From positions 37,075 through 101,074 of IMG/VR virus record IMGVR_UViG_3300018080_000131: 64,000 bases of DNA; one strand, written 5' to 3'. Numbering within the stretch: position 1 is the first letter of the stretch; every line of letters begins with the position of its first letter. Of this stretch, positions 1-64,000 are shown piece by piece. A program made the translations under genes and the position numbers. This stretch comes from a virus. A model generated the notes under the pieces. The model had not been told where the DNA came from. It saw only the letters and a list, made by a program, of their open reading frames with translations, and made no database searches.

Positions 1-936
1 ACTTGTGGAAGAAAAGTAACAGAGAAATCAGTAGAAGATGTTAAGAAAAGATATAAAGAGGATTTGAAACCTTTGCTTTTAAAACAAAAGAAATGGAATG
101 AAGAGGTTGTTAAATTTAATAAAGAAAAAGAAGATAAGAAAGTAAAATGGGATAAGAAAATAGATGAACTTATTAAGGCTGAGGATGAGCTTCTTGATGC
201 TGTAGAAGATTTTGAAAAAGAGAAGAAAGGGTTTGAGGATAAGATAAGAAGATTTGAGGATGATATTAAAGATAATAAAAGAGAGATTAAGGGTTTAGAA
301 GATAAGAAAGATTTAGCAGAAGGATATGCTCAGGAAGCTATTGATAAGAAGAAAGAGGGTTTAAAGAAGGTTGAAAATGGTATTAAGGATATTAAAAAAG
401 CTATGAAGAAGTTAGAGATTGATATTCCTTATTATGAATTTTGGGTTGAAGGGTTTGGTAATAAGGGTATTAAGAGCTTCTTGATTGATGAGGTAGTTCC
501 AGTGTTGAATAACAAAGTTAGTGAGTTTGCATCTGCTCTTATGGATGATAGTGTTCAGGTTCAGTTTGATACTCAAAGTAAATTGAAGAGTGGGGAGTAT
601 AGAGAGAAGTTTGATGTTAAAATGGTAGTTGGTGATGAGGAAATTAATTATAGTAGTTTCTCAGCAGGAGAGAAAAGGAAGATTGATGTTGCAATTCTAT
701 TAGCATTACAGAATCTTATCTTTCAGAGAAGTGCTAGTGGTTGTAATTTGGTTGTTTTTGATGAGGTGTTTGATGCTTTAGATAGAGTTGGAATTGAAAG
801 GGTTGTTAATTTACTTAGTGAAGAATCTAAAGAGAAATCTATTTTTGTGATAAGCCATATTCAAGAGCTTCAGGATTATTTTGATAAAGTGATTATAGTA
901 AAAAATAAAAATGGAATAAGTGAATTGGAGGCATAA
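1..936 (+). CDS. SbcC/Rad50/T4 gp46-like recombination ATPase (5' truncated)
   Basis: Frame open from base 1 (TCG of a zinc hook), coiled coil, ABC signature FSAGEKRK, Walker B VVFDEVFDALD, H-loop ISH. Confidence 0.9.
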   Translation, partial: TCGRKVTEKSVEDVKKRYKEDLKPLLLKQKKWNEEVVKFNKEKEDKKVKWDKKIDELIKAEDELLDAVEDFEKEKKGFEDKIRRFEDDIKDNKREIKGLEDKKDLAEGYAQEAIDKKKEGLKKVENGIKDIKKAMKKLEIDIPYYEFWVEGFGNKGIKSFLIDEVVPVLNNKVSEFASALMDDSVQVQFDTQSKLKSGEYREKFDVKMVVGDEEINYSSFSAGEKRKIDVAILLALQNLIFQRSASGCNLVVFDEVFDALDRVGIERVVNLLSEESKEKSIFVISHIQELQDYFDKVIIVKNKNGISELEA

Positions 937-1116
937 ATGCTTAATTTATTAATTGGTTTGAAACATCCAGATAAGGTTTTTAATGTTGATAATTATCAGG
1001 AGTTTCAACATAAGAAGTTTGGAAATCAGTTATGGATTCAAATGAAATTAGCTGATGGTGGAAAAGCAGAAGTTCCAGCAGAGAATGTTGCTTTTATAAT
1101 AGAGGCTAAGAAATAA
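937..1116 (+). CDS. hypothetical protein (59 aa)
   Basis: ATG right after upstream TAA; its stop overlaps the next ATG. Confidence 0.55.
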   Translation: MLNLLIGLKHPDKVFNVDNYQEFQHKKFGNQLWIQMKLADGGKAEVPAENVAFIIEAKK

Positions 1117-2281: not shown

Positions 2282-2310
2282 TTGACAAACAAGAAAAAAT
2301 GTTTTATATT
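2282..2310 (+). promoter_or_regulatory. sigma70-type early promoter, repeat copy 1
   Basis: TTGACA-17-TATATT with upstream A-tracts. Confidence 0.85.
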
Positions 2311-2652: not shown

Positions 2653-2653
2653 A

Positions 2654-6165: not shown

Positions 6166-6421
6166 GTTGTGTGATTTGGAAAAGAAAACTAAGTGGTATT
6201 ATGAAGATTCTGAATTTGTAGTTTGTGATTGTGAAACTTGTAAAATTCCTATGATTGTTAGTAAAGACCATAATTTTAGGTTAAAGGATTTTCCTGGTCA
6301 TGGTGCAGATAGAATTTTTAAGATAGTTCAAAAAGTGTTTCCAGGTAGAGATTTTTATTTTAGAACTGAGCAAAGAAAGGTAAAGAATCATTGGCATTGG
6401 CACATAATTTTTGAGGAGTAA
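6152..6421 (+). CDS. HIT-like protein
   Basis: N-terminal CELC and C-terminal HWHWH histidine triad. Confidence 0.65.
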   Translation: MKECELCDLEKKTKWYYEDSEFVVCDCETCKIPMIVSKDHNFRLKDFPGHGADRIFKIVQKVFPGRDFYFRTEQRKVKNHWHWHIIFEE

Positions 6422-6962
6422 AATAATGTTATATGAATTTTCAAAACAGTTTGAATCTTTTGTTAAAGCTTGTAAGAGTCAGTGGGTTTGTGGTGGTGAT
6501 AGATATGCTTTAGAAGAGAATAAAGAGTTCACTGATTTGGTTTGTGAGATTGCTGGTAATATTTGGATAGGTGGAAATATTATTAAGTATTCAGGTGAGA
6601 TTTGGAATTCAAAAAGGCATGGAGAACCTATTGTTGAAGTTAACTTTTTCAAAATTGCTGTTTATTCTTATATTTGGTGGTTGAAAGAGGTAAAACACCC
6701 AACAACAGGAATTGCATTGAAGAAGAAATATTGGTATGAGTTTGTTGTAGGAATGTGGAAAGCTCATTGTGGTTTAGATAAGTTAGGAGAAATTGGAACA
6801 GATACATTTATTGAGTTGATAGATTGGTTGAAAATGCTTGGTCCAAAGAAAATAGAATATTGGGATATTTTGTTTACAGTAGGAGCAAGAGCTTATGAAT
6901 GGTGGTTATTAGAACAGCATAATTTAACTGATAGAGATAAAGGTGAGGAATTTGAGAAATGA
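6411..6962 (+). CDS. hypothetical protein
   Basis: 183 aa ORF overlapping neighbours. Confidence 0.55.
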   Translation: MRSKIMLYEFSKQFESFVKACKSQWVCGGDRYALEENKEFTDLVCEIAGNIWIGGNIIKYSGEIWNSKRHGEPIVEVNFFKIAVYSYIWWLKEVKHPTTGIALKKKYWYEFVVGMWKAHCGLDKLGEIGTDTFIELIDWLKMLGPKKIEYWDILFTVGARAYEWWLLEQHNLTDRDKGEEFEK

Positions 6963-7489
6963 AAATTAGATTTATAATAGAAATTTATAATAAATATGAT
7001 TATTTTGGTAAAGATGAGTTTAGAACTTTTAGAGTTGTTGATGATACAGATGTTAATTCTATTGAAACTGCTGAAATAGAAATTAAAAAATTGATTGATA
7101 AATTTAATGAAGAAGAAAAAAATAATTATGGAGAAAAGGCTGGAAGTAGAAAATTATTAAGAATTATTGATGAAGAAAAATTAAAAAAGTGTCCAACTGA
7201 ATTAATATGGGATTCTTATATGAGACAGGAATTACAGGGTGAGTGTTCTGAATGTGGGTATAAGTTTATTGATTTTTTTAATAGAGGAAAACAAAAACCA
7301 GAAAATTTTAAACATTGTTTGGGTTTTGGTCAATCAAGAGTTAAAAATTTTGATAGAGTTATTGTTTTTGAGTGTCCAAAATGTTTTTTAAAATCACAAT
7401 TTCATTGTAATGATAATTGGTATGATTTATATGGTGAATGGATTGTTGATAATTCTATATTTTTGAAAGATGAGAAAAATAATGAGTAA
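6959..7489 (+). CDS. hypothetical protein with CxxC pairs
   Basis: CSEC and CPKC motifs. Confidence 0.55.
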   Translation: MKIRFIIEIYNKYDYFGKDEFRTFRVVDDTDVNSIETAEIEIKKLIDKFNEEEKNNYGEKAGSRKLLRIIDEEKLKKCPTELIWDSYMRQELQGECSECGYKFIDFFNRGKQKPENFKHCLGFGQSRVKNFDRVIVFECPKCFLKSQFHCNDNWYDLYGEWIVDNSIFLKDEKNNE

Positions 7490-9155
7490 AGCTGTGTGTG
7501 ATTTAAAAGGTGGTTCTTGTGTTGCAGAAGCAAGGTATTATAGTGAAGGAGAAGATTGGGATAAGTTGGCTATGAGAGTTTCACAGGCTATTGGTGTTAA
7601 TGAAAGTGATATTGTGGTAGCTCAAACATATGATATAATAAATAGAAAAGAGTTTATTCCTGGTGGTAGGATTCTTAGAAATGCAGGAAAGCTAAAAAGA
7701 AATCTTTTAAACTGTTTTGTTATTCCTATTGATGATAGTATAGAGGCTATTGCTAATTGTATGAGAGATTCATTAATAACTTGGTCTTCTGGTGGTGGAG
7801 TAGGTGTTAATTTTTCTCCATTAAGACCAGTAGGAGAAGAGATTAAAGGGAAAGGTGGTGAGTCTTCAGGATTGGTATCTTTCCTAGAGGCTATGGATGC
7901 TGTTGCTAATACTATTGAGTGTGGTGGTCAAAGAAGGAGTGCTTGTATTGCTATTGTTGATATTTCTCATCCAGAGATAGAAGAGTTTATTGATGCAAAG
8001 TTGAAGCATGGGAAGTTGAAAAACTTTAATATATCAGTTGGTATTAATGATGCATTTCTTGAAGCAGTAGAAAGAGGGAATGGCTGGAATTTAGAGTTTA
8101 GGCAAAAGGTATATAAAGAGGTAATGGCTAGAGATTTGTGGGATAAGATTCTAAAAAACATGATTAATTCAGCAGAACCAGGATTGTTGAATATGAGTAA
8201 TTTGACTAAAGCTAATAGTTATTACTTTTCTCCTATTATTGCTACTAATCCTTGTGGAGAACTTCCTTTGAGTGCTTATGGTTCTTGTGATTTAGGAGCT
8301 TTGAATTTACCTTTATTTGTTACTCCAGGTGGTTATACTAATTGGAAATCTTTGGAAGATGTTATAAAATTAGCTGTTAGGTTTTTGGATAATGTTATAG
8401 ATATAACTACATACCCAATTCCACAAATGAAAGAAGTTGCAGAAAAAGGAAGAAGAGTTGGTTTGGGGATAATGGGATTAGCTGATTATTTATTTCTGAA
8501 GAAAATAAGATATGGTTCTGAAAAGGCTAATAATGAGATTGAACATTTGTTTAAGTTTATTAGAAATACAGCATATGAAACAAGTATAAAGCTTGCAAAA
8601 GAAAAAGAACCTTTCCCAGCATTTGATTCAGTGGATTATGGTAAGGCTAGTTTTGTTAGGAAGCTTCCTGCTAAGATAAGAAAGGCTATAAAGGAAAATG
8701 GTATTAGGAATTCTTCTCTTTTAACAGTTGCTCCTACAGGTACAACAAGTATGGTAGGAGAAGTTACAAGTGGAATTGAGCCTTTGTTTTCTAAAGCACA
8801 TAGAAGAAAGGATGCTTTAGGTGAGAGAGTTATTATTCATCCTATGTATATAGAATTTTTGAAAGATGGGAAGATTCCTGATTGGTTTGTTGATGCTCAT
8901 GATTTGAAACCAGAAGAGCATTTTGAAACACAGGCTTTGATTCAGAAATATGTGGATGGAAGTATAAGCAAAACAATTAATCTTCCTGCTAATACAACAG
9001 TTAAGCAGTTGTCAGAATGGCTTCTTGAATATGCTTATGAGTTGAAGGGAGTTACAGTGTATGTTGATAAAAGTAGGAAGGAGCAGGTTTTGTATCCTAT
9101 GAGTAAAAAGGAAGTAAAAGAATATTTGAAGGAGAAGGAAAATGAAAGCAAGTAA
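7482..9155 (+). CDS. nrdJ: ribonucleoside-diphosphate reductase, probably class II (adenosylcobalamin-dependent)
   Basis: PGGRIL, NCF, GGGVG, NPCGEL, APTGT, SGIEP, SKTINLP; no NrdB partner nearby. Confidence 0.85.
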   Translation: MSKAVCDLKGGSCVAEARYYSEGEDWDKLAMRVSQAIGVNESDIVVAQTYDIINRKEFIPGGRILRNAGKLKRNLLNCFVIPIDDSIEAIANCMRDSLITWSSGGGVGVNFSPLRPVGEEIKGKGGESSGLVSFLEAMDAVANTIECGGQRRSACIAIVDISHPEIEEFIDAKLKHGKLKNFNISVGINDAFLEAVERGNGWNLEFRQKVYKEVMARDLWDKILKNMINSAEPGLLNMSNLTKANSYYFSPIIATNPCGELPLSAYGSCDLGALNLPLFVTPGGYTNWKSLEDVIKLAVRFLDNVIDITTYPIPQMKEVAEKGRRVGLGIMGLADYLFLKKIRYGSEKANNEIEHLFKFIRNTAYETSIKLAKEKEPFPAFDSVDYGKASFVRKLPAKIRKAIKENGIRNSSLLTVAPTGTTSMVGEVTSGIEPLFSKAHRRKDALGERVIIHPMYIEFLKDGKIPDWFVDAHDLKPEEHFETQALIQKYVDGSISKTINLPANTTVKQLSEWLLEYAYELKGVTVYVDKSRKEQVLYPMSKKEVKEYLKEKENESK

Positions 9156-10040: not shown

Positions 10041-10286
10041 AATGAAAAGAATAAGTGGTATTGATATTAGTAAATGGGGTATTTGGTTTAATTATCAGTT
10101 TTGGATTGACAAAGAAAAAAGAATAAATGAGGAAGACGGTTTGCTTTATGTGTGGATATGGAAAAGAAAGAAAAAATATAGAAGATTCAAATACTGTTCT
10201 TCTATATCTCAGGGTTTGTTTAAGAGCTTGAAAGAGGTAAGGGAATTTTGGGTTGATTATAATAAATTTGTAAGATGGTATAAAAC

Positions 10287-11201
10287 ATGAAAACAATAGA
10301 TGAGATTTTTGAAGGTGTTTGGGTTAGTGATGGTGAGTTTTTAATTCAGTGTCCTTATTGTAATGACCATCCTACTCATAATCATTGTTATGTGAATATC
10401 AAAAAAAGTGTTTTTAATTGTTTTTATTGTGGAGAATCAGGAACATTAAAAAAGCTGTTAAAGGATTTTGGTGATGATGAGAAGGTTAAGACGATAAGAA
10501 GAAGGCATGGGGTTAAAGAAAGACAAAAACATAAAGAAATATCAATTGATGAGTTTAATAGATTTAATCCAGTAACAGGAGCTAATGGTACTAATGATTT
10601 ATTAGCATTGAAATATCTTGAGAATAGAGGATTAAGACCATTTGAGATTAGGAATTATGATATTAGGTATGCTTCTTCAGGTAAGTATTTTGGAAGGGTG
10701 ATTATTCCTATTTATGAGGAAGGTGATTTGGTTTGTTTTATTGCAAGAAGTTTCTTAGATATGATTGAACCTAAATATTTATTTCCAAAGCATGGAGAAA
10801 CTAAATTAACTACAAATGAAGCATTATTTGGGTATGAGAAATCAAGAGATTATTGGTCAAGCAATCATGTTATTGTAGAAGGTGTTTTTGATGCTATAAA
10901 GATAAATCAAACAGATAATTTTAAAGGTATAGCTATTATGAGCAAGCATTTAAGTGAAGGTCAGAAATATAAGCTGTTGAAGCTGGAAGGAACTTTTTAT
11001 ATAATGCTAGATTCAGATGCTAAGTTAGATTCTTTGAAGGTTGCTGGAGAATTATCTAAGTATGGAAAAATTGTGAAGGTTGCGTTTATTAAAAGTAAAG
11101 ACCCAGGAGAAGCTAGTTTGAAGGAAATAAGAAAGGCTTTGAGACAAGCTGAGCCTTTTTCTTATGAACTAGAAATGAGAATAAAAATGGAGGATTGGTA
11201 A
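10287..11201 (+). CDS. DNA primase (zinc finger + TOPRIM)
   Basis: CPYC..CFYC zinc finger, YLENRG, GRVIIP, PKY, IVEGVFDA, MLDSDA, KDP. Confidence 0.88.
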   Translation: MKTIDEIFEGVWVSDGEFLIQCPYCNDHPTHNHCYVNIKKSVFNCFYCGESGTLKKLLKDFGDDEKVKTIRRRHGVKERQKHKEISIDEFNRFNPVTGANGTNDLLALKYLENRGLRPFEIRNYDIRYASSGKYFGRVIIPIYEEGDLVCFIARSFLDMIEPKYLFPKHGETKLTTNEALFGYEKSRDYWSSNHVIVEGVFDAIKINQTDNFKGIAIMSKHLSEGQKYKLLKLEGTFYIMLDSDAKLDSLKVAGELSKYGKIVKVAFIKSKDPGEASLKEIRKALRQAEPFSYELEMRIKMEDW

Positions 11202-11479
11202 GGCAGGTAAAAATGCTAAAAATAACAGTTGAGATTATTCCTTTTGGAATAAAAGATATGAAGAAAAGGCTTGGCGAGATATATATTACTAATGATGGTA
11301 CTGGAAATGAAGAAATAGGAAATTATAATTATACAATTAAAACTGAAAGAAGACAAGATGAGAAGATTGGTGATGAGTTAAAAGGGAGAGTAGAGAACTT
11401 CCAAAGAAGAAAGTGTAATTTTTGGAAGCTGTTGTATTTGATTTTGAAGGGAGTTTATGATGGGAGAGAAAAAATATAA
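11195..11479 (+). CDS. conserved phage hypothetical protein
   Basis: I.NDGTG...GNY pattern. Confidence 0.55.
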   Translation: MVRQVKMLKITVEIIPFGIKDMKKRLGEIYITNDGTGNEEIGNYNYTIKTERRQDEKIGDELKGRVENFQRRKCNFWKLLYLILKGVYDGREKI

Positions 11480-12284
11480 AATTTATTTGATTATAAATAA
11501 AATTAATGGAAAAACATATGTTGGAATGACTAGTAGGACAGTTAAACAGAGAGTAGAGGGTGGTCATTTTACTAAAAATGCTAATATTCTGTTACAAAGA
11601 GCTTTAGATAAATATGGAAAAGATAATTTTGAATATGGTACTTTAGAAGTTTGTGGTTGTGAAGAGGATGCTGTTGAAGCTGAAAAATTTTGGATTGCTA
11701 CTTTTAATAGTATTTCTAATGGATATAATATAGATGAAGGTGGTACTTTTCCAAGTGAATCTATGAGGGATAAAAGTAGTGAAGGACTTAGAGAATATTG
11801 GAAAAGAGTTACAGGTAAGAAATCAGTAAAAAGAATAAATATTAAGAAAATAAATGAATTAACACAGAAATATGTTGATACAAAGGATGAAAAAATTTGG
11901 GATGATTTAATTTCAGAATTGTATATTATTATTGATATTTTACTTGGGAAAAATTATACAAGAATAAAAACTCTTTGGGATGATATGAGACAAGATGTAA
12001 TAATTAACTTGTGGAAAAATAGAAGAACTGTTGGTGATACCTGTTCTCATAGTTTTTATAATCATTATTATAATAGAATTAGAAAGGGGTTAAATAGAGC
12101 TATAAAAAAATATGAAGGTGAAAAATATGAAGAAAGTGATTATTTAATTTATAAGGAGAAAAAACAACCTATGTATGATTTTTTAGATATGAATGTTAAG
12201 TCTATAGAAGATTTAACTGATGAGGAAAAATTAGAAGTTGGTTTGGATACTGAAGGAAATATGTCAGAAGATTATGAAGAGTAA
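11457..12284 (+). CDS. GIY-YIG endonuclease domain fused to a sigma-factor region-2-like domain
   Basis: KIYLIINKINGKTYVG, catalytic R, E, GYN; C-terminal half DDMRQDVIINLWK...FYNHYYNRIR resembles sigma region 2. Confidence 0.65.
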   Translation: MMGEKKYKIYLIINKINGKTYVGMTSRTVKQRVEGGHFTKNANILLQRALDKYGKDNFEYGTLEVCGCEEDAVEAEKFWIATFNSISNGYNIDEGGTFPSESMRDKSSEGLREYWKRVTGKKSVKRINIKKINELTQKYVDTKDEKIWDDLISELYIIIDILLGKNYTRIKTLWDDMRQDVIINLWKNRRTVGDTCSHSFYNHYYNRIRKGLNRAIKKYEGEKYEESDYLIYKEKKQPMYDFLDMNVKSIEDLTDEEKLEVGLDTEGNMSEDYEE

Positions 12285-30304: not shown

Positions 30305-30559
30305 GAAAATTTTAGAAAAACTTGATAAGATAGAATTTGCTTTTAAAACAAGAGAAAGAGAGAGATGGTCTAAATCTGAAAGGGATGAGGTTTTAAAAAG
30401 AGGTGAAGAACCAGCAGATTTTTATCAGATATGGTCTAAGTTAATAAAGCTTTGGGCTATTAAATATTGGATTAAGAAATATAATTATCTTCCTCTGTCC
30501 TATAAAAGACAGATTGAGGAATGGGAAGAGGAATTGAATAATTACTTATAGAGGTTAGA

Positions 30560-32149
30560 ATGGAAAAAGAGAAGAATAAGGGCTTTGTGTCTAAAGTTAG
30601 GAGTGGTCTAGCTAGGTTTGTATTTGGAGATGAGTTTATTGCAAAACAAACTACAGAATATATTCCTGACAAGGGGAGAACTCCAAACTTTTTTAAAAGC
30701 TTTTATAATCAATATATTGATGCAATAGAAAAGGCTAGAAAAAGGCATGATAAATATGACAGGTATAAATTTCTTGATGACAATTTAGCTGAAGCTTCAG
30801 CTTCATTAAATATTTATGCTGATAATATTGTTAGTGGAGCTATGGGTGGAAGAGAAAATTATATGGTTTTGCTTGATGAGGCTACTCCTAATAAAAGTGA
30901 GATTGAGGAAGTTATAAAATATAATGAACAGATGAGTAATATTAAAAATTCAATTTGGGATATTGCTAGGAAGATGTTGAATTATGGGGATGATTGGAGA
31001 GAAGTTGTTATTGCTCAAAATGATAAAGGATTGAAATATATTGATAAATTAAAACCTTTACCAGTAAAAGAAATGTATGCTGAAGTGGATGATAGGGGTG
31101 TTTGGAAAGACCCATTATATCCATATACTCAAAAAAAGGATGAAAGAGATGATGGTGTTAAATTTGATTGGTGGAGAATACTTCATTTCAAAGTTGGAGA
31201 AGAGGTTTATGGTGATGATTATTCTTTGTTTGCTAATGCTTCTCAGAGAATAGGAAGACAATTGTTGTGGATAGATGATTGTATGGTTATTGCTAGGATG
31301 AGTAGAGCTTGGATGAGGTATGCTTATTTGGTTGATACAGAAGGTTTGAATCCTGAAGAAAGATGGGAATATGCTCAGAGATTTTTAGAGATGATGAAAA
31401 GAACTGAAGAGGCTGAAGAAAGTACTGGAAGGTTGAATCAATATGATGCTCCAAGGATGCCTGATGAGGATATTGTTATTCCTGTTACAAAGGATTCAAG
31501 ACAGGATATTAAACCTTTGAGTGGTGATTTGAATATAGGTAATATTGATGATGTTAGATACTTCCAAGGTAAGTTCCTTATGGCTTTGAATATTCCTAAA
31601 GCTTATATGGCTATTGAAGAAGGTGTAAGGTCAAAGGCTACATTACAACAAATAGATGTTCAGTTTGCAAGACAGGTAAGAAGGAAGCAAGATGCTCTTA
31701 TTCCTGGTCTTAAAAAACTTTATAAGTTGATATTTACTTTGGCTGGTATTGATTATACTTCATTTAATTGGGATATTGTTTTCCCAGAATTGGCTACTAT
31801 TGATGAATTAACAAGATGGGAAATGATGAAAATAAAAGCTGAGGTTGCTAAAATTTTAGCTGTTGATGTTGGAGCTATTAATAATGAATATATTTATTAT
31901 GAGATTTTGGAGATGACAGAAGAAGAGGTTAATAAATACAGGTTGGTTACTCCTGGTAGAGAGCCTTCTGATTTAGTTAATATTCCACCAGAAGTAGCAG
32001 GTAAGTTGAAGAATGACCCATATGTTAGGCAAATGATTGATGATTTAACTGATATTATTTCTTGGAGAAAAGCACAAACTGACAAGCTTGAAGGAATGAA
32101 GGCTGTTGGTGTTGAAAGAAATAAGAGTTTGAAAGAGATGAGAGATTAG
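30560..32149 (+). CDS. portal protein (T4 gp20-like)
   Basis: L.IYAD, ILHF, RMSRA..R..Y.VD, I..L.G..NIGNIDDV.YF..K...AL.IPKAY, DVQFARQVRR.Q. Confidence 0.85.
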   Translation: MEKEKNKGFVSKVRSGLARFVFGDEFIAKQTTEYIPDKGRTPNFFKSFYNQYIDAIEKARKRHDKYDRYKFLDDNLAEASASLNIYADNIVSGAMGGRENYMVLLDEATPNKSEIEEVIKYNEQMSNIKNSIWDIARKMLNYGDDWREVVIAQNDKGLKYIDKLKPLPVKEMYAEVDDRGVWKDPLYPYTQKKDERDDGVKFDWWRILHFKVGEEVYGDDYSLFANASQRIGRQLLWIDDCMVIARMSRAWMRYAYLVDTEGLNPEERWEYAQRFLEMMKRTEEAEESTGRLNQYDAPRMPDEDIVIPVTKDSRQDIKPLSGDLNIGNIDDVRYFQGKFLMALNIPKAYMAIEEGVRSKATLQQIDVQFARQVRRKQDALIPGLKKLYKLIFTLAGIDYTSFNWDIVFPELATIDELTRWEMMKIKAEVAKILAVDVGAINNEYIYYEILEMTEEEVNKYRLVTPGREPSDLVNIPPEVAGKLKNDPYVRQMIDDLTDIISWRKAQTDKLEGMKAVGVERNKSLKEMRD

Positions 32150-32154: not shown

Positions 32155-32227
32155 GCCAGGATAGTATAATGGAGATTATTCCTGTTTTGTAAGCAGAGAG
32201 ATGAGGGTTCAAGTCCTTCTCCTGGCT
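32155..32227 (+). tRNA. tRNA-Thr(UGU), CCA not encoded
   Basis: GCCAGGA/TCCTGGC acceptor, anticodon loop TT-TGT-AA, T-arm GAGGG-TTCAAGT-CCTTC. Confidence 0.85.
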
Positions 32228-42348: not shown

Positions 42349-42360
42349 TAGAGGTAAAAA

Positions 42361-43578
42361 GTGTTAAGTAAAAAAGTAAATAAGTTTTTGCAAGAGCAGA
42401 AAAAGAGAATGATTGCTCTTGATGAAGCAGAACTTCCTGTTGATGATGGTTTTAGAGCTAATGTGATGAGAGATGAGAATGGAAGAAGGGCTAGTGTTAA
42501 TGAAGTTATTTATCAGAATATGATTGATTGGCTTAATTCTCCTCAGGCTGAAGCAATCCTTTGGAAAGAGAGAGAAGTGCTTGAAAGTGCTATTTCTGAA
42601 GATACTCTTTCTACTAGTGTCCCTACTTTCACTACTGCTTCTCTTCCTTTGGTGAGAAGGATTTATAACAAGCTTGATGCTGTTGATTTGGTTTCTGTGC
42701 AACCTTTGAGTGGTCCTACTGGTTATATCTTTTATCTTGATAAGAAATATACTAGTACTACTGGTGAGGTAACTGCATTACAGAGAACTGACCAGCAAAA
42801 GCCTAGAAGGTATATGAATTCTAGTGAGCAGGGTACTATTAGAGAATTGCAGATGGGTATTACCAGATTGCTGATTGAGTCTGATATTTATAAATTGAAG
42901 GCTGATTGGACAATTGAGGCTGAACAGGACTATAAATCTCAGTATAAACTTGATGTTGAAGGCGAGATGGTTTCTGAGCTTGCTGATGAGGTTACCAGAG
43001 AGCTTAATAGGAAAATCCTATATGCTCTTAGAAATGGTATTGCTCATACTGTAACTTATAATCCTACTGGGTATCTTACAGGAGATACAGATTCAACTTC
43101 TAGGTTGGATTATAGAAAGTATGGATTGTTTGGTGCTTTGTATGATGCTCAGGCTTGGATTCTTGAGAATAAGGTCAAAGATGAAACTGCTGTTGATTGG
43201 TGGGTTATAATGAGACCTACTGAGTGGGCTAGATTTAGAAAAATTGGTATGCATGATATGTCAGTTCTTTCTAATGATAGAACTGCTGAAGTTCAGGGTA
43301 GGCATGTTGGCACTATTGATGGAATGTTCAAGGTCTATGTGTCTAATGAGATGAAGAAGAATCAGATGTTGATGGGAATCAAGAAGGGTTGGAAATATGC
43401 TGTTGGTTATTATGCTCCTTATGTTCCTCTTTTTGTGTCTGAGAAATACATCATAAATGATGATTTTACTCAGTTTGCAAGAGGAGTTATGACAAGGTTT
43501 GCCCATGGGGTAATTCCTGAAACTTCTACTGGTTCTACCAACAATGGTCTTGTTCTTATTGATGTAACTTCAAGCTAA
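42361..43578 (+). CDS. major capsid protein (T4 gp23-like)
   Basis: PLVRR, SVQPLSGPTG.IFYL, KLKA.WT.E.EQD, YAPYVPL, RGVMTRF. Confidence 0.92.
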   Translation: MLSKKVNKFLQEQKKRMIALDEAELPVDDGFRANVMRDENGRRASVNEVIYQNMIDWLNSPQAEAILWKEREVLESAISEDTLSTSVPTFTTASLPLVRRIYNKLDAVDLVSVQPLSGPTGYIFYLDKKYTSTTGEVTALQRTDQQKPRRYMNSSEQGTIRELQMGITRLLIESDIYKLKADWTIEAEQDYKSQYKLDVEGEMVSELADEVTRELNRKILYALRNGIAHTVTYNPTGYLTGDTDSTSRLDYRKYGLFGALYDAQAWILENKVKDETAVDWWVIMRPTEWARFRKIGMHDMSVLSNDRTAEVQGRHVGTIDGMFKVYVSNEMKKNQMLMGIKKGWKYAVGYYAPYVPLFVSEKYIINDDFTQFARGVMTRFAHGVIPETSTGSTNNGLVLIDVTSS

Positions 43579-43633: not shown

Positions 43634-43693
43634 GATGGGAAAAATTAAATGCCATGTATCAGAAATGATTAAGATTTGCTTATTTTTCTCATC
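43634..43693 (+). other. intergenic stem-loop with TATCAGAAATGATTA core, copy B
   Basis: Outer stem GATGGGAAAAAT/ATTTTTCTCATC; core shared with 39095-39109. Confidence 0.55.
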
Positions 43694-43704
43694 TCCAAAC
43701 TAAA

Positions 43705-51595: not shown

Positions 51596-52224
51596 ATTTA
51601 ATTCCAAAAGAAGCAAAAAGTTTACCAAGATTAGGTGTTGGTTTAATTGGTGAGAATAGAATTATAGAAGAATTATTCAGATTTAAAGTGTTTATGAATG
51701 AGATTAATGAAGAGTTTTTTCTTGTTGGTGGATTATTACTTGGAGCTATTAGAGAGGATGGGTTATTATCTCATGATAAAGATTTAGATTTTAGAGTTGA
51801 TGGTGATGCTATTTTATATAAGATGTTATGGTTTGAAAAGTTTAAATATAAATATTATGATGTTGCTCATATTGGTTCTTATGGAAATGGTAGAAATGAT
51901 AAGATTCTTTGGTTTAAAAAATATTTTAATGATAAAAGATTTGTTCTTGTTATTGAAATATCTGCTCAATATAAGAAAGATTGTTTTATGTTTTTTAATA
52001 GAGATGTTGGAAAAAGTTTTAAATTTAGAGAAGGAAGATTGGTTTGGAATAAAGATATTTTTAGACCATTTAAGACTTACAATCTATGTGGAATATCTCT
52101 TAATATTCCAAATAAATCTGAAGAGTGGTTAAATGTTATGTATGGTAAAGATAAATGGCAAAAAGAAGAAAAATGGGTTGATTGGAGAGGTCATACTGAA
52201 AATTTATATGAAGGGTATTGGTAA
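51592..52224 (+). CDS. LicD-family phosphotransferase
   Basis: GG.LLGAIRE.G...HD.D.D; IP...E.WL..MYG..W. Confidence 0.8.
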   Translation: MNLIPKEAKSLPRLGVGLIGENRIIEELFRFKVFMNEINEEFFLVGGLLLGAIREDGLLSHDKDLDFRVDGDAILYKMLWFEKFKYKYYDVAHIGSYGNGRNDKILWFKKYFNDKRFVLVIEISAQYKKDCFMFFNRDVGKSFKFREGRLVWNKDIFRPFKTYNLCGISLNIPNKSEEWLNVMYGKDKWQKEEKWVDWRGHTENLYEGYW

Positions 52225-52958
52225 TGTTAACTAGAAAAGATGTTGGACAGCAGATTTATATTGTAAGTTACCCAAGAAGTGGGAATACTTGGATGAGGTT
52301 TTTATTAATGAATATGTTTTATCCAGAAGAGGAGATAAGTTTTCCAAATGTTAATAGACTTGTTCCAGATGCTCATCAGAAAGCTGGTTGGCATAAGCAT
52401 AAAGTTTTTGACCCATTAATATTGAAATGTCATATACAGGAATATGCTCCATATTATGTTTCTAAAAATGTTTATATTTATAGAGATGGTAGAGATGTTG
52501 CTGTTTCTTATTATTATTTCAAAGGACTTGATAAAGAACTTGAGTTTAATGAATATTTATTTAGATTTATAGATGGTGGTCTTCATATGTGGAAGCCTTG
52601 GATAAATCATGTTTATTTTTGGCTTCTTGAGAATCCAAAATTTGATTTTATTCCTATTTGTTATGAAGAGTTAATAAAGAATCCAGAAGAGAATTTAAAA
52701 AAAATAATGTGGTTTTTGAATATAAAGAAGATTGATTCAAGTGATGAAGCTATTGAGAGAGCAGTTAAAAATTGTTGTCATGAGAATCTTTCAAATATTG
52801 CTCAGAGAGATGGTTTAAAACCTAGTCTTCTTGGTAAAAAAGCTAGAACTGGTTATTGGAAAGATTATATTAATAAAGAAATGCTTAATTATTGGTGGAG
52901 AAGAATAGGTGATGTTATGGAAAGAATTGGGTATGAGAAGGGAGAATCAAATAAATGA
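52224..52958 (+). CDS. PAPS-dependent sulfotransferase (Sulfotransfer_1)
   Basis: SYPRSGNTW 5'-PSB loop; YRDGRDVAVSYY 3'-PB motif. Confidence 0.9.
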   Translation: MLTRKDVGQQIYIVSYPRSGNTWMRFLLMNMFYPEEEISFPNVNRLVPDAHQKAGWHKHKVFDPLILKCHIQEYAPYYVSKNVYIYRDGRDVAVSYYYFKGLDKELEFNEYLFRFIDGGLHMWKPWINHVYFWLLENPKFDFIPICYEELIKNPEENLKKIMWFLNIKKIDSSDEAIERAVKNCCHENLSNIAQRDGLKPSLLGKKARTGYWKDYINKEMLNYWWRRIGDVMERIGYEKGESNK

Positions 52959-53653
52959 TTATGTCATTAAAATATAAGTTTTTGTTTAAGCATGTTCCTA
53001 GAGTTGCTGGTAAATCAATTATGAGTACTCTTACTCCTTATAGTGATATTGTTAAAGCTGGTCATGCAGATATGAAAGCTATTAGAAATAGTTTATTGCA
53101 TAGGAATAAATGGAGATTTTTGGTTGATTGTGAAACACCAGATATGGAGCAGGTTGAGATTTATGGAAGACAATTATGTATCAAAGAGAAATTTTTTAAG
53201 ATGAGTCAAGAAGAATATGATGAGTTATTTACTTTTGCTTTTGTCAGGAATCCTTATGGTAGAGAGTTGTCAAGGTATTTGTTTATAGGTAAAAGACCTC
53301 AGCATGTAAGATATAAAGAGGTTAATAATAGAACTTTTGAACAGTGGTTGAAATATTTATATGATAATCCAAATAGAAGACAGAATCAGTTAGATATGTT
53401 AACTGACAAAGAAGGTAAAATGATAATTACATTTGTTGGGAAGTATGAGAATTTGGAAGGTGATTTTAAAACAGTTTGTTCTAAAGTTGGTCTTCCAGCA
53501 GATTTAAAATTATTCCATATTGATTTAGTTGGTATGGAGCATTTAATAAGAAAAGATTATGGTCAATACAAAGACTATTTTACAGATGAAGCTAAGAAAT
53601 TAGTTAGAGAAATTTGTAAAAAAGATATTGAGTATTTTGGCTATGAATTTTAA
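52955..53653 (+). CDS. sulfotransferase (Sulfotransfer_2 family)
   Basis: F.HVPRVAG.S; FVRNPY.R..S.Y; D..YFGY.F. Confidence 0.85.
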   Translation: MIMSLKYKFLFKHVPRVAGKSIMSTLTPYSDIVKAGHADMKAIRNSLLHRNKWRFLVDCETPDMEQVEIYGRQLCIKEKFFKMSQEEYDELFTFAFVRNPYGRELSRYLFIGKRPQHVRYKEVNNRTFEQWLKYLYDNPNRRQNQLDMLTDKEGKMIITFVGKYENLEGDFKTVCSKVGLPADLKLFHIDLVGMEHLIRKDYGQYKDYFTDEAKKLVREICKKDIEYFGYEF

Positions 53654-54596
53654 GGAGAAAGATTTGAAAAAAACAATTTTGGTAACTGGTGGAGCAGGAT
53701 TTGTAGGTTCTGTTCTTATTCCATTATTAATTGAGCAAGGTTATAAGGTAAGGGCATATGATTCTTTATTGTATGGTATTGAACCTGTAATGGGGTTGTT
53801 TTTGAATAAGAACTTTGAGTTGATTAAAGGTGATATTAGAGATGTTGATAGAGTTAAGAAATATTCAGAAGGTGTTGATGCTGTTATTCATTTAGCTTCT
53901 CTTGTTGGGTATCCTATTTGTAAGAAGAATGAGAAAGAAGCTATGTCAGTAAATTCTTATGGTACACAGGCTGTTCTTAATAGTATTCCTTCTAAAGTTC
54001 CTTTTATTTTTGCTTCTACAGGTTCATGTTATGGGAACTTGGAAGGTATTTGTAAGGAAGATTTGCCATTAAAACCTTTAACAATTTATGGTAAATCAAA
54101 AGCTAAAGCTGAGGAGTTTATTCAGAAAAGAGGAAATTATGTGATTTATAGATTTGCTACAGGTTATGGTGTTTCTCCAAGGTTAAGATTAGATTTGATG
54201 ATAAATGATTTTTGTTATAAAGCTGTTAAAGAAAAGAATTTAATTGTATATGAGAAGCATTTTAAGAGAACTTTTATTCATGTATATGATATGGCTAGGT
54301 CTTTTTTATTTGCTGTTGAGAATTTTGATAAGATGAAGAATGAGTGTTTTAATGTTGGTTCTGAAAAGTTGAATTTAACAAAGGAGCAGATAGCTGAATA
54401 TATTAGAAGGTTTGTCCCATATTATTTGCATTATGCTGATTTTGGTCATGATGAGGATAAAAGAGATTATTCTGTAAGTTATGAGAAGATTAGAAAGCTT
54501 GGTTTTGAAACTAAGATTTCTATGGAAGTTGGTATTATTCAATTAATAAGGTTGTTTAAGGCTTTGGAGATTGAAAACAAATATTCAAATGTCTAA
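53643..54596 (+). CDS. NAD-dependent nucleotide-sugar epimerase/dehydratase
   Basis: TGGAGFVG, YGKSK, extended SDR. Confidence 0.9.
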   Translation: MNFKEKDLKKTILVTGGAGFVGSVLIPLLIEQGYKVRAYDSLLYGIEPVMGLFLNKNFELIKGDIRDVDRVKKYSEGVDAVIHLASLVGYPICKKNEKEAMSVNSYGTQAVLNSIPSKVPFIFASTGSCYGNLEGICKEDLPLKPLTIYGKSKAKAEEFIQKRGNYVIYRFATGYGVSPRLRLDLMINDFCYKAVKEKNLIVYEKHFKRTFIHVYDMARSFLFAVENFDKMKNECFNVGSEKLNLTKEQIAEYIRRFVPYYLHYADFGHDEDKRDYSVSYEKIRKLGFETKISMEVGIIQLIRLFKALEIENKYSNV

Positions 54597-54750
54597 TGTC
54601 TAGGAAGAAGATTAAGGCTGTTATAGAGATAGAGTGTTATAATCCACCAGATAGTTGTAAAGGTGAGAGAAGAAGGGAATGGTTGGAAGATTCTATAAGG
54701 ATGGAATTGAAGAAGTTTGATTATAATCTATTAATTTTGGAGATAAAAAA

Positions 54751-54957
54751 ATGATTGATTCAAGATGTAGGTCTTTTGTTAAAGCATTAGTTTGGAGAAT
54801 TATAGGTATTATAATTCTTGGAATTGTAACTTATGTAGTTACTGGAAGCTGGAAAGATGTTGGTATTATCACCATAATATTTCATGGAATAAGAGTTGTT
54901 TTGTATTATTACCATGAAAGAATATGGGAAAAAATTAAATGGGGTAGGAGTTTATAA
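54751..54957 (+). CDS. DUF2061 membrane protein
   Basis: RS.VKA..WR...YYHERIW.KI.WG. Confidence 0.85.
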   Translation: MIDSRCRSFVKALVWRIIGIIILGIVTYVVTGSWKDVGIITIIFHGIRVVLYYYHERIWEKIKWGRSL

Positions 54958-55904
54958 TGAATTTAGAAGGTAAAAAGGTCTTGTTAACTGGAGGCTCAGG
55001 TTTTCTTGGTAGGGTTATTAAAAGAAAACTCTTACTGAAAGATGTGGAGCTTTTTGCTCCAAGGTCTTCAGAAATGAATATGTTGGATTTTAGACAAGTG
55101 TTAGAATATTTTACTGAGGTTGACCCAGAAATTGTAATTCATAGTGGTGCTTATTATGGTGGTCTTGGTATAAATAGGATGTATCCTGCTGAGATATTCT
55201 TTCAGAATACTTTATTTTATGCTCATATTTTAGAGGCTTCAAAGTTGGTTGATGCTAAAAAGGTTGTGATGGTTGGAACTGCATGTTCTTATCCTGATGG
55301 TCTTGAGATTTTGAAAGAAGAGGATTTATGGAGTGGTGCTGTTCACAAGTCAGTACAGAACTATGGTGGTGTAAAAAAGATGATGCAGATTGGGATTGAA
55401 TCTTATAAAAATCAGTATGGAATGGATGGTATCCATGTACTTCTTGCTAATTTGTATGGTGAATGGGATAGTTACAATCCTGAAAGGAGTCATGTTGTTA
55501 GTGCTTTAATTAGGAAATTTGTTGAAGCTAAGATGTTTGATAGACCAGAAGTTGGGGTTTGGGGTACAGGAAGACCTATAAGAGAATTTTTGTATGTGGA
55601 AGATGCAGGAGAGGGTATTGTTAGGGCTACAGAAATGTATGATGATATTTCTCCTTTGAATATAGGAACTGGAATTGGTACAAGTATTAAAGAGCTTGTT
55701 AATTTAATTGCTTATGTTACTGAATATAATGGAAAGATTGTTTGGGAATCTGATAAGCCTGATGGACAGTACAAGAAAATTTTTAGTACTGAGAAAATGG
55801 AAAGGGTTTTGAATTGGAAACCAGAAATGCCTTTAATTGGTGGTCTTAAAAGAACCTGTAAATGGTTTGAAGACAACTATGAAGAGGCTATAAAAAGATT
55901 TTAA
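54957..55904 (+). CDS. fcl: GDP-L-fucose synthase-like epimerase/reductase
   Basis: TGGSGFLG, GG.G.N..YPA..F, GTACSYP, SHVV.ALIRKF, WGTG.P.REFLYV.D, KPDG. Confidence 0.88.
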   Translation: MNLEGKKVLLTGGSGFLGRVIKRKLLLKDVELFAPRSSEMNMLDFRQVLEYFTEVDPEIVIHSGAYYGGLGINRMYPAEIFFQNTLFYAHILEASKLVDAKKVVMVGTACSYPDGLEILKEEDLWSGAVHKSVQNYGGVKKMMQIGIESYKNQYGMDGIHVLLANLYGEWDSYNPERSHVVSALIRKFVEAKMFDRPEVGVWGTGRPIREFLYVEDAGEGIVRATEMYDDISPLNIGTGIGTSIKELVNLIAYVTEYNGKIVWESDKPDGQYKKIFSTEKMERVLNWKPEMPLIGGLKRTCKWFEDNYEEAIKRF

Positions 55905-60343: not shown

Positions 60344-60786
60344 TGGCTGAGTTTTCCAGTTCAGATTCACCAAGAAGCTGTAAGCTTTGTGAGCAATTAT
60401 CAAAGCAGAAGTCTTTTAAGAAAGGTTCTAGGGTTAGGATTGCTGGTGTTTTTGATTGTGAGAACTGTCCAGTTTGGAAAGCAAAGCCAATTAAAGAAAA
60501 TGAGATTATAGTATTTCTCTATAATCAAATACCTTTCAGGTTTAATTCAATAAGTGGACAGGTGGAGTTTTCTGCTGAAGATGTAAAGTTTTTATTTGAG
60601 GTTTATGGTATTCATAAAGACCTTTGGGAAGATTATTATAACAGATTAATGTATTTGAACAGAGAAGTTAACATAGCTCATAAAAAACAAACAGAGGCTA
60701 TTAATAAGAAAAGAAAAGAAGATGAGGAATGGAAGAGGTTGAAGAAAGCTTCTTCTAAGAATGTTGTAGAAAAGGTTATGAGATAG
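60334..60786 (+). CDS. tail assembly chaperone frameshift extension (gpGT-like)
   Basis: T TTA AAG (X XXY YYZ) at 60334-60340; -1 frame continues into ORF 60343-60786. Confidence 0.8.
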   Translation, partial: FKVVAEFSSSDSPRSCKLCEQLSKQKSFKKGSRVRIAGVFDCENCPVWKAKPIKENEIIVFLYNQIPFRFNSISGQVEFSAEDVKFLFEVYGIHKDLWEDYYNRLMYLNREVNIAHKKQTEAINKKRKEDEEWKRLKKASSKNVVEKVMR

Positions 60787-60793
60787 AGGTAAT

Positions 60794-63700
60794 ATGTCTT
60801 CTAAAGATGTAGTTGTTGTACTTGAATTTACAGATAAAGGTACAGCAAAAATTAAGAAAGTACTTCAGGATACTGAAGGTAGGCTTAAAGCTGTTGGTTC
60901 TTCTGCTGAGAAGTCTGGTAAAGGCTTTAAGAGTATGACAAATGAAACTAACAAAGCTACAGAAAAAACTTCTAAGTTCAAGTCAATGCTAAAAAGTACT
61001 GCTGTTCAGATGGCAACAGGTATGGGAATCATGATGGGAGTTTCAGGAGCAATAAGAGGTATATCTAATGCTGTAAAAAGTACTATCCAGGCTGGTATGG
61101 AGTTTGAAAAAGAATGGGCTAATGTAACAACAATGCTTTCTATATCAGAAGCAGAGACAGAAAAAATGAAAATGGGTTTAATTAAAATGTCTCCAGTATT
61201 GGGGGATACAACAGATTTAGCTAAAGGTATGTACCAGGTTCTTTCAGCTAGTATTGAACCTGCTAAGGCTTTAGATTTCTTAGCTGAATCAGCTAAGAGT
61301 GCTAAGGCTGGTGTTACTGATACAAAAACTGCTGTTGATGCTCTTACTACTGTTATAAATGCTTATGGGATGGAAGCTGAAGATGTTACAAAAGTAAGTG
61401 ATATTATGTTTGCTACAGTTAAAAGAGGTAAATTGACCTATGAAGGTATGGCTGGAGCTTTGGGAACTGTTGCTCCTATAGCTAGTCAAGTTGGTGTTAA
61501 GTTTGAAGAGATAGCTGGAGCTATGGCTACATTAACAAGGCAAGGTATTGATGTAAATACAACAACAGTTCAGTTGAGGCAGGTTCTTGTTTCTGTTTTG
61601 AAACCAACAAAAGAAGCTCAGGATGAGGCTAAAAGATTAGGTTTAGAATTCAATGCACAGGCTTTAAAGGCTAAGGGATTGTCAGGTTTTCTTGCAGATG
61701 TTCAAGCAAAAACAAAAGGAAATGCTGATTCAACTACAAAATTGTTTGGTAATGTTAGGGCTTTAACAGGTATTATGGGATTAGCAGGAGAAAGAGCTAA
61801 GGAGTATGCTTATGATTTGGAATTAATGGCTAGTGCTTCTGGAGCTACAGAAGAAGCTTTTCAAAAACAAATGAAAAGTTCTGCTTTTTGGATAGATGTA
61901 ATGAAGAATACTATAAAGAAATTACAAATTTCTTTTATGCAAGGAATGGTAGAACCTTTTAAGAAAGGTGTAAGAACAAGTGATGATTTAGATAATTCTA
62001 TAGGTATGTTAATTGATAAGGTTTTAAATTTAGGAAGGAATGTTGGTAAAACAGCTAAAAAAATTGTTGATAATATTAATATAGTTATTTCTACTCTTGG
62101 TGGTATGGATAATGCTATTAATACTGTTTCTAAAAGTTGGGCAGAAAAAATGGGTAAAAAATTGTTTGGAGATAAATCAGCAAAAGAGGCTATGTCAGAG
62201 GCTAGACAAGAAGCAAGAAAATGGTCAGAGCAGTTAGAATATGTAACTATTGCATATGAAGAATTAGCTAAAAATTATGCTAATCCAAAATGGAGAAGGG
62301 AGATGGAGGCTAGAAATGAGCTAATGAAAGAAGGTGCTAGACAAACTGAGCTTGCTAAATTTGAGAATAAAGGTCTTCTTGGTACTATGGCTCATTTATC
62401 TACAGAATATAGAAATACTATTAGTAACATTTATGCTACTTCAAAATCTCATGAGGAAGCTAGAAATAGGATAGAGGCTTATAATAATAGAATTAAACAA
62501 TCAACTGAGGCTCATGAAGATAATAATGAAAAAATAAAAACAAGTGTTGAGGTTATTAAAACTCTTACTGATAAAGCTGTTGAATTAAAAAATAATATTC
62601 CTGGTTGGCACTCTGCTTTATTGAATGAATTGAATATGGTTACTACCAGTGTTCAAAATATGAGTGAAAGAAATATTAAGAATGTTGGTGATACATTGAA
62701 ACAGTGGGTTACAGTTGATGCTGGGAATATTTTGAGTAACTTACCAGCAACTTATGAAGATAGAGCATTAATACCTATGGAAGATAAGACAAAAAAAGTT
62801 ACAGAAGAAATGGCAAAGAGTTTTGAAGAGATTGGTATGGCACTCCAACCTATTGCTGAAGAAATAGGTGGAACTTGGGGTGATTTAATTGCTAATGTTG
62901 GTGTAGCCTTTGGTTCATTGAAGAAAGATACTGTAATGACCTTTAAAGGTATAGCTGATGCAATTGGACCAGTTTTGAGTGGAAAGATAGGTGGAGCTAT
63001 AGGTAGTCTTATTAGTGGTACAAAGAAGAACTTTGCTAGTTTAGGAAGTAGTTTAGGAAAAAGTATTGGTGGGTTGTTAGGACCAGTTGGAAGTGTTGTG
63101 GGTAGTTTAGCAGGTGGTCTACTTGGTGGTTTGTTTAAAAAGAAAGTGAAGAAAACAGCAGAGGAATTAAGAGCAGAAAAGTTGGATGTTTGGATTGGTA
63201 ACATTACAGGAGCTATGAAAAACTTAGGTGATATTTCAGAAGAGACAGCTAAAATAATAGCTGAAGATGTGGTTGATAGAGGTATGAAAGGTTATATAGC
63301 AGAAAGCAAGAATTTTGCAAAGATAATTGAAGATGTGGGAGTGAGGCAGGATAACATAAATCAGCTATGGTCTAGAGCTACAGATATTATTCATCATGTT
63401 ACAAGTGGTGAGCTTGATGCAGTTGAAGGTAGTAAGGCACTAGGAGAATCTTTTAACCTGTTATTGAAAGGTACTCAGGATTTGGGCTTAGAAGGTTCTA
63501 GAGCTATGACAAACTTCATACAGAAGATAAGAGAAAGTGGTTTGGAAGTTAAAGAAGTAACAGAGTATGTGAATCAACAGTTAGATGTGGTAGTAAGTGG
63601 TTTTCAGAGTATGGTAGGTGCTAGTGATGGAAGTGCTGAGAGTTTACAAAGACTTGGTACAATAGCTATGGGTACTTTTGCAGAGATGATTAATAATGGA

Positions 63701-64000
63701 GATTCATATTATGAAGCATTGATGAGAATGAGAGAACCAGTGCTTGCTTTGGCTGAAAAGTATGATGAATTGGGAATAAAAGGTAGTGAGGCTTTTGAGG
63801 AATTAAAAAGACTTACTCAAATAACAGAAGACCATAAAGAACTAGTTCAAGCTATTGATGGTGCTAATACTGCTTTAACAGCTATGAATAATATTGGTAT
63901 GTTAACTCAGGAATTGTTTGATGCTATGAATCAAGAAGCTGTTACTTATTTTAACCAGCTTGTTAATTCAGGTGTAGCTAGTGAAGATGCATTAAAACTG
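60794..64000 (+). CDS. tail tape measure protein, TP901-like (3' truncated)
   Basis: GAGGT RBS, ATG 60794, appears open to window end; FEKEWANV, LAKGMYQVLSAS, VINAYG, LFGNVRAL motifs; not in ORF track. Confidence 0.9.
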   Translation, partial: MSSKDVVVVLEFTDKGTAKIKKVLQDTEGRLKAVGSSAEKSGKGFKSMTNETNKATEKTSKFKSMLKSTAVQMATGMGIMMGVSGAIRGISNAVKSTIQAGMEFEKEWANVTTMLSISEAETEKMKMGLIKMSPVLGDTTDLAKGMYQVLSASIEPAKALDFLAESAKSAKAGVTDTKTAVDALTTVINAYGMEAEDVTKVSDIMFATVKRGKLTYEGMAGALGTVAPIASQVGVKFEEIAGAMATLTRQGIDVNTTTVQLRQVLVSVLKPTKEAQDEAKRLGLEFNAQALKAKGLSGFLADVQAKTKGNADSTTKLFGNVRALTGIMGLAGERAKEYAYDLELMASASGATEEAFQKQMKSSAFWIDVMKNTIKKLQISFMQGMVEPFKKGVRTSDDLDNSIGMLIDKVLNLGRNVGKTAKKIVDNINIVISTLGGMDNAINTVSKSWAEKMGKKLFGDKSAKEAMSEARQEARKWSEQLEYVTIAYEELAKNYANPKWRREMEARNELMKEGARQTELAKFENKGLLGTMAHLSTEYRNTISNIYATSKSHEEARNRIEAYNNRIKQSTEAHEDNNEKIKTSVEVIKTLTDKAVELKNNIPGWHSALLNELNMVTTSVQNMSERNIKNVGDTLKQWVTVDAGNILSNLPATYEDRALIPMEDKTKKVTEEMAKSFEEIGMALQPIAEEIGGTWGDLIANVGVAFGSLKKDTVMTFKGIADAIGPVLSGKIGGAIGSLISGTKKNFASLGSSLGKSIGGLLGPVGSVVGSLAGGLLGGLFKKKVKKTAEELRAEKLDVWIGNITGAMKNLGDISEETAKIIAEDVVDRGMKGYIAESKNFAKIIEDVGVRQDNINQLWSRATDIIHHVTSGELDAVEGSKALGESFNLLLKGTQDLGLEGSRAMTNFIQKIRESGLEVKEVTEYVNQQLDVVVSGFQSMVGASDGSAESLQRLGTIAMGTFAEMINNGDSYYEALMRMREPVLALAEKYDELGIKGSEAFEELKRLTQITEDHKELVQAIDGANTALTAMNNIGMLTQELFDAMNQEAVTYFNQLVNSGVASEDALKL

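Follow-up and report, generated by a model that had tools for sequence, protein, structure and literature searches.

The phage genome and its gene content

The DNA studied here is a window of 64,000 bases from IMG/VR record IMGVR_UViG_3300018080_000131, a single viral contig of 101,074 bp, of which it covers bases 37075-101074 (63% of the genome). The contig is the genome of a virulent-type tailed phage from which the dinucleotide CG has been almost entirely purged, and this purge, its footprint in the encoded proteins and its probable cause are the subject of this work. Positions are those of the window unless they are given as genome positions (Table 1).

The phage was identified by matches to portal, prohead protease, major head and tape-measure proteins. 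All genes lie on the plus strand, the standard genetic code is used, and the open reading frames (ORFs) are dense and intact. The two contig ends join in frame within the tape-measure ORF, which makes it probable that the genome is complete and circularly permuted and closes into a circle; CheckV estimates the completeness of the contig at 65%. A six-frame search of the genome found no tyrosine integrase and no serine recombinase or resolvase. The phage carries its own replication set, which comprises a fusion of uracil-DNA glycosylase (UDG), 3'-5' exonuclease and PolA polymerase, DnaB-like and UvsW-like helicases, RecA, a flap endonuclease, an SbcCD-like pair, a probable DnaG-like primase and a ribonucleotide reductase (RNR). 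The closest matches of the UDG-PolA fusion are polymerases of SPO1-like Bacillus phages (26-30% identity). Two ORFs in other reading frames upstream of the RNR gene (6408-7489) have no Pfam match, and the RNR may be split or N-terminally truncated. A GIY-YIG endonuclease and a PD-(D/E)XK nuclease are also encoded.

DNA-modification genes were searched for in the whole genome. PF00145, the profile for C5 methyltransferases, gave no match at E ≤ 1, and neither an N4/N6 or Dam methyltransferase nor a homologue of ThyA/dCMP-hydroxymethylase or dCMP deaminase was found. The sequence-only reading of the window had proposed to look for a methyltransferase elsewhere in the phage genome, and this search thus came back empty for the C5, N4/N6 and Dam types.

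Between the capsid and neck genes lies a cluster of glycan-building genes. It encodes GT9 glycosyltransferases, a radical SAM-SPASM-methyltransferase fusion, an asparagine-synthase-like protein, a DUF362 protein, a cytidylyltransferase, two sulfotransferases, two SDR epimerases and possibly a LicD-like protein, whose Pfam match falls just below the cut-off. The 951-aa glycosyltransferase of the cluster is 38-54% identical to its counterparts in eight relatives (e.g. L033, L034, L007 and L006). As a clue to the host the cluster proved uninformative, being a feature of the clade that CG-normal relatives have as well.

Table 1. Coordinates of the genes and sites discussed (window positions unless marked as genome positions)
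Feature	Position	Strand	Remarks
RNR large subunit	7467-9155		562 aa; covers only positions 226-785 of the PHROG profile
Cluster of four of the seven genomic CGs	10137..11276	+	DnaG-like primase gene and two small flanking ORFs
GIY-YIG endonuclease gene	11448..12284	+	PF01541, E = 2e-11; directly downstream of the CG cluster; no CG
Portal protein	30542..32149	+	PHROG 213; marker that revealed other CG-free relatives
tRNA-Thr(UGU)	32155..32227	+	ARAGORN; Rfam 52.5 bits; no CG
Major head protein, T4 gp23-type	42358..43578	+	PHROG 138; homologues carry PF07068; used to gather relatives
Single CG in major head protein gene	42963..42964	+	GGC|GAG codon junction
Glycan-building cluster	43669-55904		between capsid and neck genes
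Tape-measure ORF	60782-64000, continuing at genome 1-525		1,248 aa; in frame across the contig ends
UDG-3'-5' exonuclease-PolA fusion	genome 24028-26406 (L036:6028-8406)		792 aa; UDG family-4-type; outside the window

CG is nearly absent from every part of the genome

The window contains exactly five CGs, at 10137, 10492, 11083, 11275 and 42963, the same number and positions that the sequence-only reading had found by eye. Base composition predicts 1,300, in line with the rough estimate of hundreds to over a thousand given in that reading, and the observed/expected (O/E) ratio is 0.004. The reverse dinucleotide GC occurs 1,460 times (O/E 1.12), so that the loss is specific to the order CG. In the full genome, seven CGs remain of 2,070 expected (O/E 0.003), i.e. 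99.7% have been removed.

The purge is uniform. Under a null that respects codon positions, about 1,620 CGs are expected in coding DNA and six are seen (0/494, 3/803 and 3/322 in the three codon phases), and the non-coding DNA holds one CG where 217 are expected. The depletion amounts to about 150- to 300-fold in each codon phase and in the spacers, and all 16 NCGN contexts are depleted by at least 98%. A CpG ratio close to what codon-position base composition predicts would have spoken against the purge; the counts in genes and spacers lie far from it, and the near-absence of CG is confirmed as a real property of this genome.

At the codon level the pattern is one of silent recoding. Arginine, which had been read from the sequence as AGA/AGG, is indeed encoded by AGA (1,080 codons) and AGG (466 codons) and never by CGN; the CGN share is 0/1,437, whereas it is 24-64% (typically about 40%) in relatives. 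Apart from the few surviving sites described below, NCG codons go unused and no codon ending in C stands ahead of a codon starting with G. C at codon position 3 drops about 150-fold when the next base is G, from 4.9% before other bases to 0.03%, and position-3 G following C drops to a similar extent. C is scarce in general: it accounts for just 9% of the bases on the coding strand (GC skew +0.42) and for 3.3% of codon position 3, where T reaches 48%. The UDG domain fused to the polymerase may have some relevance to this extreme C-poverty.

Four of the seven surviving CGs lie within 1.14 kb (simulation P ~2e-4), all of them at synonymous sites (GAC|GGT, ACG, GCG and GGC|GAG). They fall in and around the primase gene, an assignment based on weak Pfam matches that are all under the gathering cut-offs. 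The patch was considered as a compositionally foreign import, and this was rejected, as neither its G+C content nor its C at codon position 3 is distinguishable. Given its position beside the GIY-YIG gene, the patch could be a tract that was co-converted from a less-purged relative in connection with homing.

The Rfam scan of the window returned nothing besides the tRNA-Thr. Its T-loop reads GGTTCAAGTCC and contains the TTCAA that the sequence-only reading had listed among the signs of CG loss. A purine at that T-loop position is normal for tRNAs, so that this detail alone is unremarkable.

Other short words are purged and the proteome pays for it

CG is not the only word missing. GATC is absent against 138-242 expected from Markov and synonymous-shuffle nulls (138 from the shuffle), and GGCC is absent against 17-42 (17 from the shuffle). 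GCNGC is also absent, with about 29 expected from base composition, to which Ala-Ala pairs alone would add about 59. Synonymous-codon shuffling further predicts 27 GTSAC, 25 ACATGT and 15 CAGCTG, none of which occurs, and the same complete loss is seen for GATATC (0 vs 28) and GAGCTG/CAGCTC (0 vs 22). The avoided non-palindromic words are mostly depleted on both strands, as the word itself and as its reverse complement.

In the protein sequences, two amino-acid pairs have disappeared from about 30,000 codons. Ala-Ala is absent against 59 expected, GCN-GCN being bound to create GCNGC, and Trp-Pro is absent against 13, TGG-CCN being bound to create GGCC. Asp-Gln, Asp-His, Asp-Pro and Gly-Pro are depleted 2- to 5-fold. 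Codon choice moreover depends on the neighbouring codon: Asp ahead of a codon starting with C is GAC in 58/58 cases and never GAT-C, although GAT is 13 times commoner overall, and GGA-TC and AGA-TC are never used for Gly-Ser and Arg-Ser. These missing dipeptides and neighbour-dependent codons are the footprints of GCNGC, GGCC and GATC avoidance at the protein level. Since they go beyond what mutation bias produces, they argue for selection acting on DNA words.

A separate class of avoided words concerns translation. AGGAGG is absent within genes (about 55 expected) and GGAGG occurs there 18 times where 130 are expected, while many start codons are preceded by AGGAG or GGAG. Shine-Dalgarno-like sequences are thus avoided inside genes, a translational effect that is distinct from the restriction-type words.

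The unit that is avoided is the dinucleotide itself

GATC, GGCC and GCNGC have the length of typical restriction targets (4-8 bp), which cannot be said of CG, where the avoided unit is a dinucleotide. The loss of CG could in principle be the sum of many Type II sites: a phage with a host range in which CCGG, GCGC, ACGT, TCGA, CGCG, CCGC and further sites are cut would, by escaping all of them, lose CG as a whole. Relatives of the phage do show specific purges of this kind, as CCGG and GCGC are at zero in L117, ACGT and CCGG in L118, and TCGA stands at 2/90 in L011-L013. In addition, all seven surviving CGs sit in non-palindromic NCGN contexts; this bias is weak (P ~0.06, estimated from base composition). 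The uniformity of the purge is difficult to reconcile with such a sum. All ten canonical NCGN contexts are purged by at least 98%, including some for which no 4-bp enzyme is known to us, whereas only two of the 11 palindromic tetramers without CG (GATC and GGCC) are purged. If sites were targeted independently at this rate of 2/11, all ten contexts would be reached with a probability of ~4e-8. We therefore regard an accumulation of Type II sites as very unlikely. With all 16 NCGN contexts purged and only 2/11 of the CG-less tetramers, ordinary restriction sites of 4-6 bp do not add up to the CG purge, and the agent must work on CG itself as a bare dinucleotide.

CG-free relatives are scattered over the clade

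Megablast against GenBank phages gave no match, and tblastn returned only remote T4-type capsids (≤ 33% identity) besides the SPO1-like polymerases. A scan of genome contigs with the portal alignment found no relative, and the PolA query found no match among viral contigs. The sequence is present in a single public run, a sediment metagenome that may represent the source sample.

Relatives were instead gathered by protein markers. The major head protein led to 34 loci (L001-L034; ≤ 57% identity) with CG O/E ratios of 0.4-1.4 and ordinary counts of GATC, GGCC and GCNGC. A tail-fiber query retrieved 79 loci, which have only short generic modules in common and none of which is CG-free. Portal-based searches yielded L037 and L117-L122, and among these three further CG-free genome fragments were found: L037, L119 and L122, with CG O/E ratios of 0.006, 0.011 and 0.032. 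All three lack GATC and GCNGC entirely, and in the three pooled Ala-Ala is absent against 24 expected.

Other relatives are intermediate. L118 (CG O/E 0.17) contains GATC and GCNGC. L117, an IMG/VR contig represented here by 16,951 bases, with a CG O/E of 0.26, retains GATC and has lost CTAG (0/50), GTAC (0/50), GGCC (0/14) and GCNGC (0), together with Ala-Ala (0 vs 14 expected). L120 and L121 (0.42 and 0.60) have ordinary word counts, and L033 and L034 (0.78 and 0.79) show low GGCC (4/22 and 6/25) beside ordinary GATC and GCNGC. The intermediates have zeroed tetramers of their own (CCGG, GCGC, ACGT or TCGA) in addition to a general deficit of CG. Such palettes, differing from phage to phage, are what one would expect of phages that have adapted to hosts with different sets of restriction systems.

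The CG-free genomes do not group together in the portal tree. L119 is sister to L118 (76% identity), L037 pairs with L122, and the phage studied here stands apart, next to the CG-normal L033 and L034. On this tree the CG-free state is non-monophyletic and appears to have arisen, or to have been lost, several times. As the relatives would then have reached it independently, the pressure would follow the host or the environment rather than the lineage.

These relatives also bear on two non-biological or physical explanations. Adaptation of CG steps to physical or thermal conditions would find some parallel in thermophilic bacteria, in which CpG is lower after correction for G+C content (PMC11282364). 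In the same bacterial survey, the O/E shift between thermophiles and mesophiles is modest and does not approach 0.003 (PMC11282364), and close relatives from similar samples retain CG. A conversion or assembly artefact of the bisulfite type was ruled out, because the ORFs are intact, C is kept in His, Pro, Gln and Leu codons, and four contigs from different metagenomes look alike. Taken together, a physical or technical origin of the CG deficit is extremely improbable.

Selection and mutation as causes of the CG loss

We consider it probable that CG is nearly absent as a result of selection, by which the phage rids its DNA of short words that are read by host nucleases or sensors. The sequence-only reading had named two possible causes, very strong selection and deamination driven by a CpG methyltransferase. 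The first agrees with the uniform purge, with the complete loss of CGN from arginine codons and with the other purged words that force amino-acid changes. The second is less likely as the sole cause, in view of the same arginine codons, the lack of a TG/CA-specific excess and the failure to find a phage methyltransferase.

Under purely mutational decay, CpG would be methylated by the host or by a phage gene located off the contig, and the 5-methylcytosine (5mC) would decay to T, which the UDG-polymerase would leave unrepaired, so that CG would turn into TG/CA without any selection. Precedents exist in bacteria: CpG under-representation is tied to the CpG-specific methyltransferases M.MpeI of Mycoplasma penetrans and M.SssI in work cited in PMC11282364 and PMC5944983, and the co-occurrence of such an enzyme with CpG under-representation in M. 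penetrans (as cited in PMC11282364) lends this explanation some credit. As in CpG-methyltransferase or vertebrate 5mC decay, the loss in our phages is specific to CG, is accompanied by some inflation of NCA codons, and is graded and independent of context in the intermediates.

Other features differ. Deamination of CGN has no synonymous product, as it yields Cys, Trp, His, Gln or a stop, and pure 5mC decay would thus keep CGN at constrained arginine sites; in this phage CGN is gone from all of them. The lost CG mass is redistributed proportionally over CA, CC, CT, AG and TG, with no TG/CA-specific excess genome-wide: the dinucleotide ratios of CA, TG and CT are 1.12, 1.16 and 1.43, where renormalization alone predicts about 1.18, 1.15 and 1.35. 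The depletion by 150- to 300-fold in every class is far deeper than in vertebrates, whose CpG O/E is about 0.2. No methyltransferase of the C5, N4/N6 or Dam type was found on the phage contig, and deamination cannot produce the purges of GATC and GCNGC or the loss of Ala-Ala and Trp-Pro. Mutational decay without selection is therefore unlikely.

Several points weigh against selection by host defenses. In the CG-free phages, NCA codons exceed the level set by control four-fold families (logit difference 0.47-0.68, compared with 0.17 in CG-normal relatives), roughly as a change of NCG to NCA would leave them, which fits a G-to-A route of the deamination type. The graded, context-independent CG loss in the intermediate relatives is what mutational pressure would also give. 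The strong C-to-T-type bias of the coding strand and the UDG domain on the polymerase indicate that deamination matters to this phage. Selection and hypermutation alike would deplete CG by the same factor in all codon phases. Neither a host nor a CG-reading enzyme was identified by GenBank megablast, tblastn or the portal scan of genome contigs, and we know of no restriction enzyme with bare CG specificity. The CheckV estimate leaves the gene absences non-final, and the portal tree consists of 10 rows, is midpoint-rooted and leaves one relevant fork unresolved.

On balance, deamination is disfavoured as the sole cause and may be a contributor, given the inflated NCA codons and the graded CG loss in the intermediates. 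Were the genome at mutation-selection balance, the 150- to 300-fold drop would translate into a scaled selection coefficient of about 5-6 for each CG. The GC skew is higher in CG-free phages (0.36-0.42 vs 0.28-0.33), as would be predicted by coding constraints, because in two of the three codon phases a CG can be removed only through a change of its C.

Comparison with known systems and proposed mechanism

Avoidance of restriction sites has been documented for non-temperate dsDNA phages (Rusinov et al. 2018, PMC6286503). The present phage resembles these cases (PMC6286503) in that it is a dsDNA tailed phage without a detected integrase or recombinase and with its own replication genes, from which short palindromic words of the Type II kind have been eliminated; in that these words are under-represented against composition- and codon-aware nulls on both strands; and in that the palette of purged words varies among relatives. 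It differs in that its main word is a dinucleotide and in that the purge goes as far as eliminating amino-acid pairs from the proteome. We class it as an extreme variant of restriction-word avoidance.

Two of the purged words have a history in other phages. The Bacillus phages SPbeta, phi3T and rho11 encode multispecific C5-methyltransferases that protect GGCC and GCNGC. The same words are evidently dangerous to our phage, the UDG-PolA of which is nearest to that of SPO1-like Bacillus phages. Unlike SPbeta, phi3T and rho11, it deletes the words rather than methylating them. Deletion would also allow escape from methyl-dependent enzymes, such as those of the BisI family, which cut Gm5CNGC (PMC4926085).

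A different use of a CG-free genome would be self-immunity, in which a phage nuclease or another DNA-damaging enzyme acts at CG on the DNA of the host or of competitors and the CG-free DNA of the phage itself is safe. A parallel would be phage T4, which breaks down DNA that contains cytosine and is protected from this in its own DNA. The phage studied here does encode two candidate nucleases, and endonuclease II of T4 is a GIY-YIG enzyme. The GIY-YIG gene found here, however, resembles an ordinary free-standing homing endonuclease, and self-immunity leaves the parallel loss of GATC, GGCC and GCNGC unexplained. We judge this scenario highly improbable.

Under the selective reading that we prefer, the phage, in which no DNA-modification genes were detected, would keep its DNA clear of words recognized by nucleases or sensors of the host. 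CG is the most extreme member of a package that also includes GATC, GGCC, GCNGC, GTSAC, GATATC, ACATGT and CAGCTG/GAGCTG. The purge proceeds by silent recoding and, where this is impossible, at the cost of amino-acid pairs such as Ala-Ala and Trp-Pro. As for the agent, which we infer to belong to the defense systems of the hosts, our best guess is a combination of CpG-specific methylation in some hosts and methylation-dependent (Type IV-like) nucleases elsewhere in the host population; a novel CG-reading defense elsewhere in that population would be the alternative. Deletion of the word would evade both ordinary and methyl-dependent enzymes. Decay of 5mC to T may add a secondary mutational push, as UDG cannot repair the resulting T.

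A wider conjecture, which we put forward tentatively and do not hold to be likely, is that bacteria of anoxic sediments carry an undescribed defense that reads bare CG, either directly or through CpG methylation followed by methyl-dependent cleavage. Such a defense might have driven at least three independent near-complete purges in one clade, each accompanied by the loss of GATC and GCNGC.

Implications for phage biology

Word avoidance is the simplest anti-restriction strategy and is normally discussed for sites of 4-8 bp; in the present genome a dinucleotide has been erased, and our literature search found no report of a CG-free phage. The surrender of Ala-Ala and Trp-Pro illustrates how far selection at the DNA level can reach into the proteome. 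The implied selective agent would read only two bases, and none of this kind has been described in prokaryotes. The clade constitutes a natural experiment, with CG-free, intermediate and CG-normal members and with sister phages that differ, and the agent should be identifiable once hosts are linked to these phages. The triad of CG, GATC and GCNGC provides a search image for the methylome and the defense genes of the host. Functional genomes of about 100 kb that are essentially free of CpG thus exist in nature, the one described here with seven CGs.

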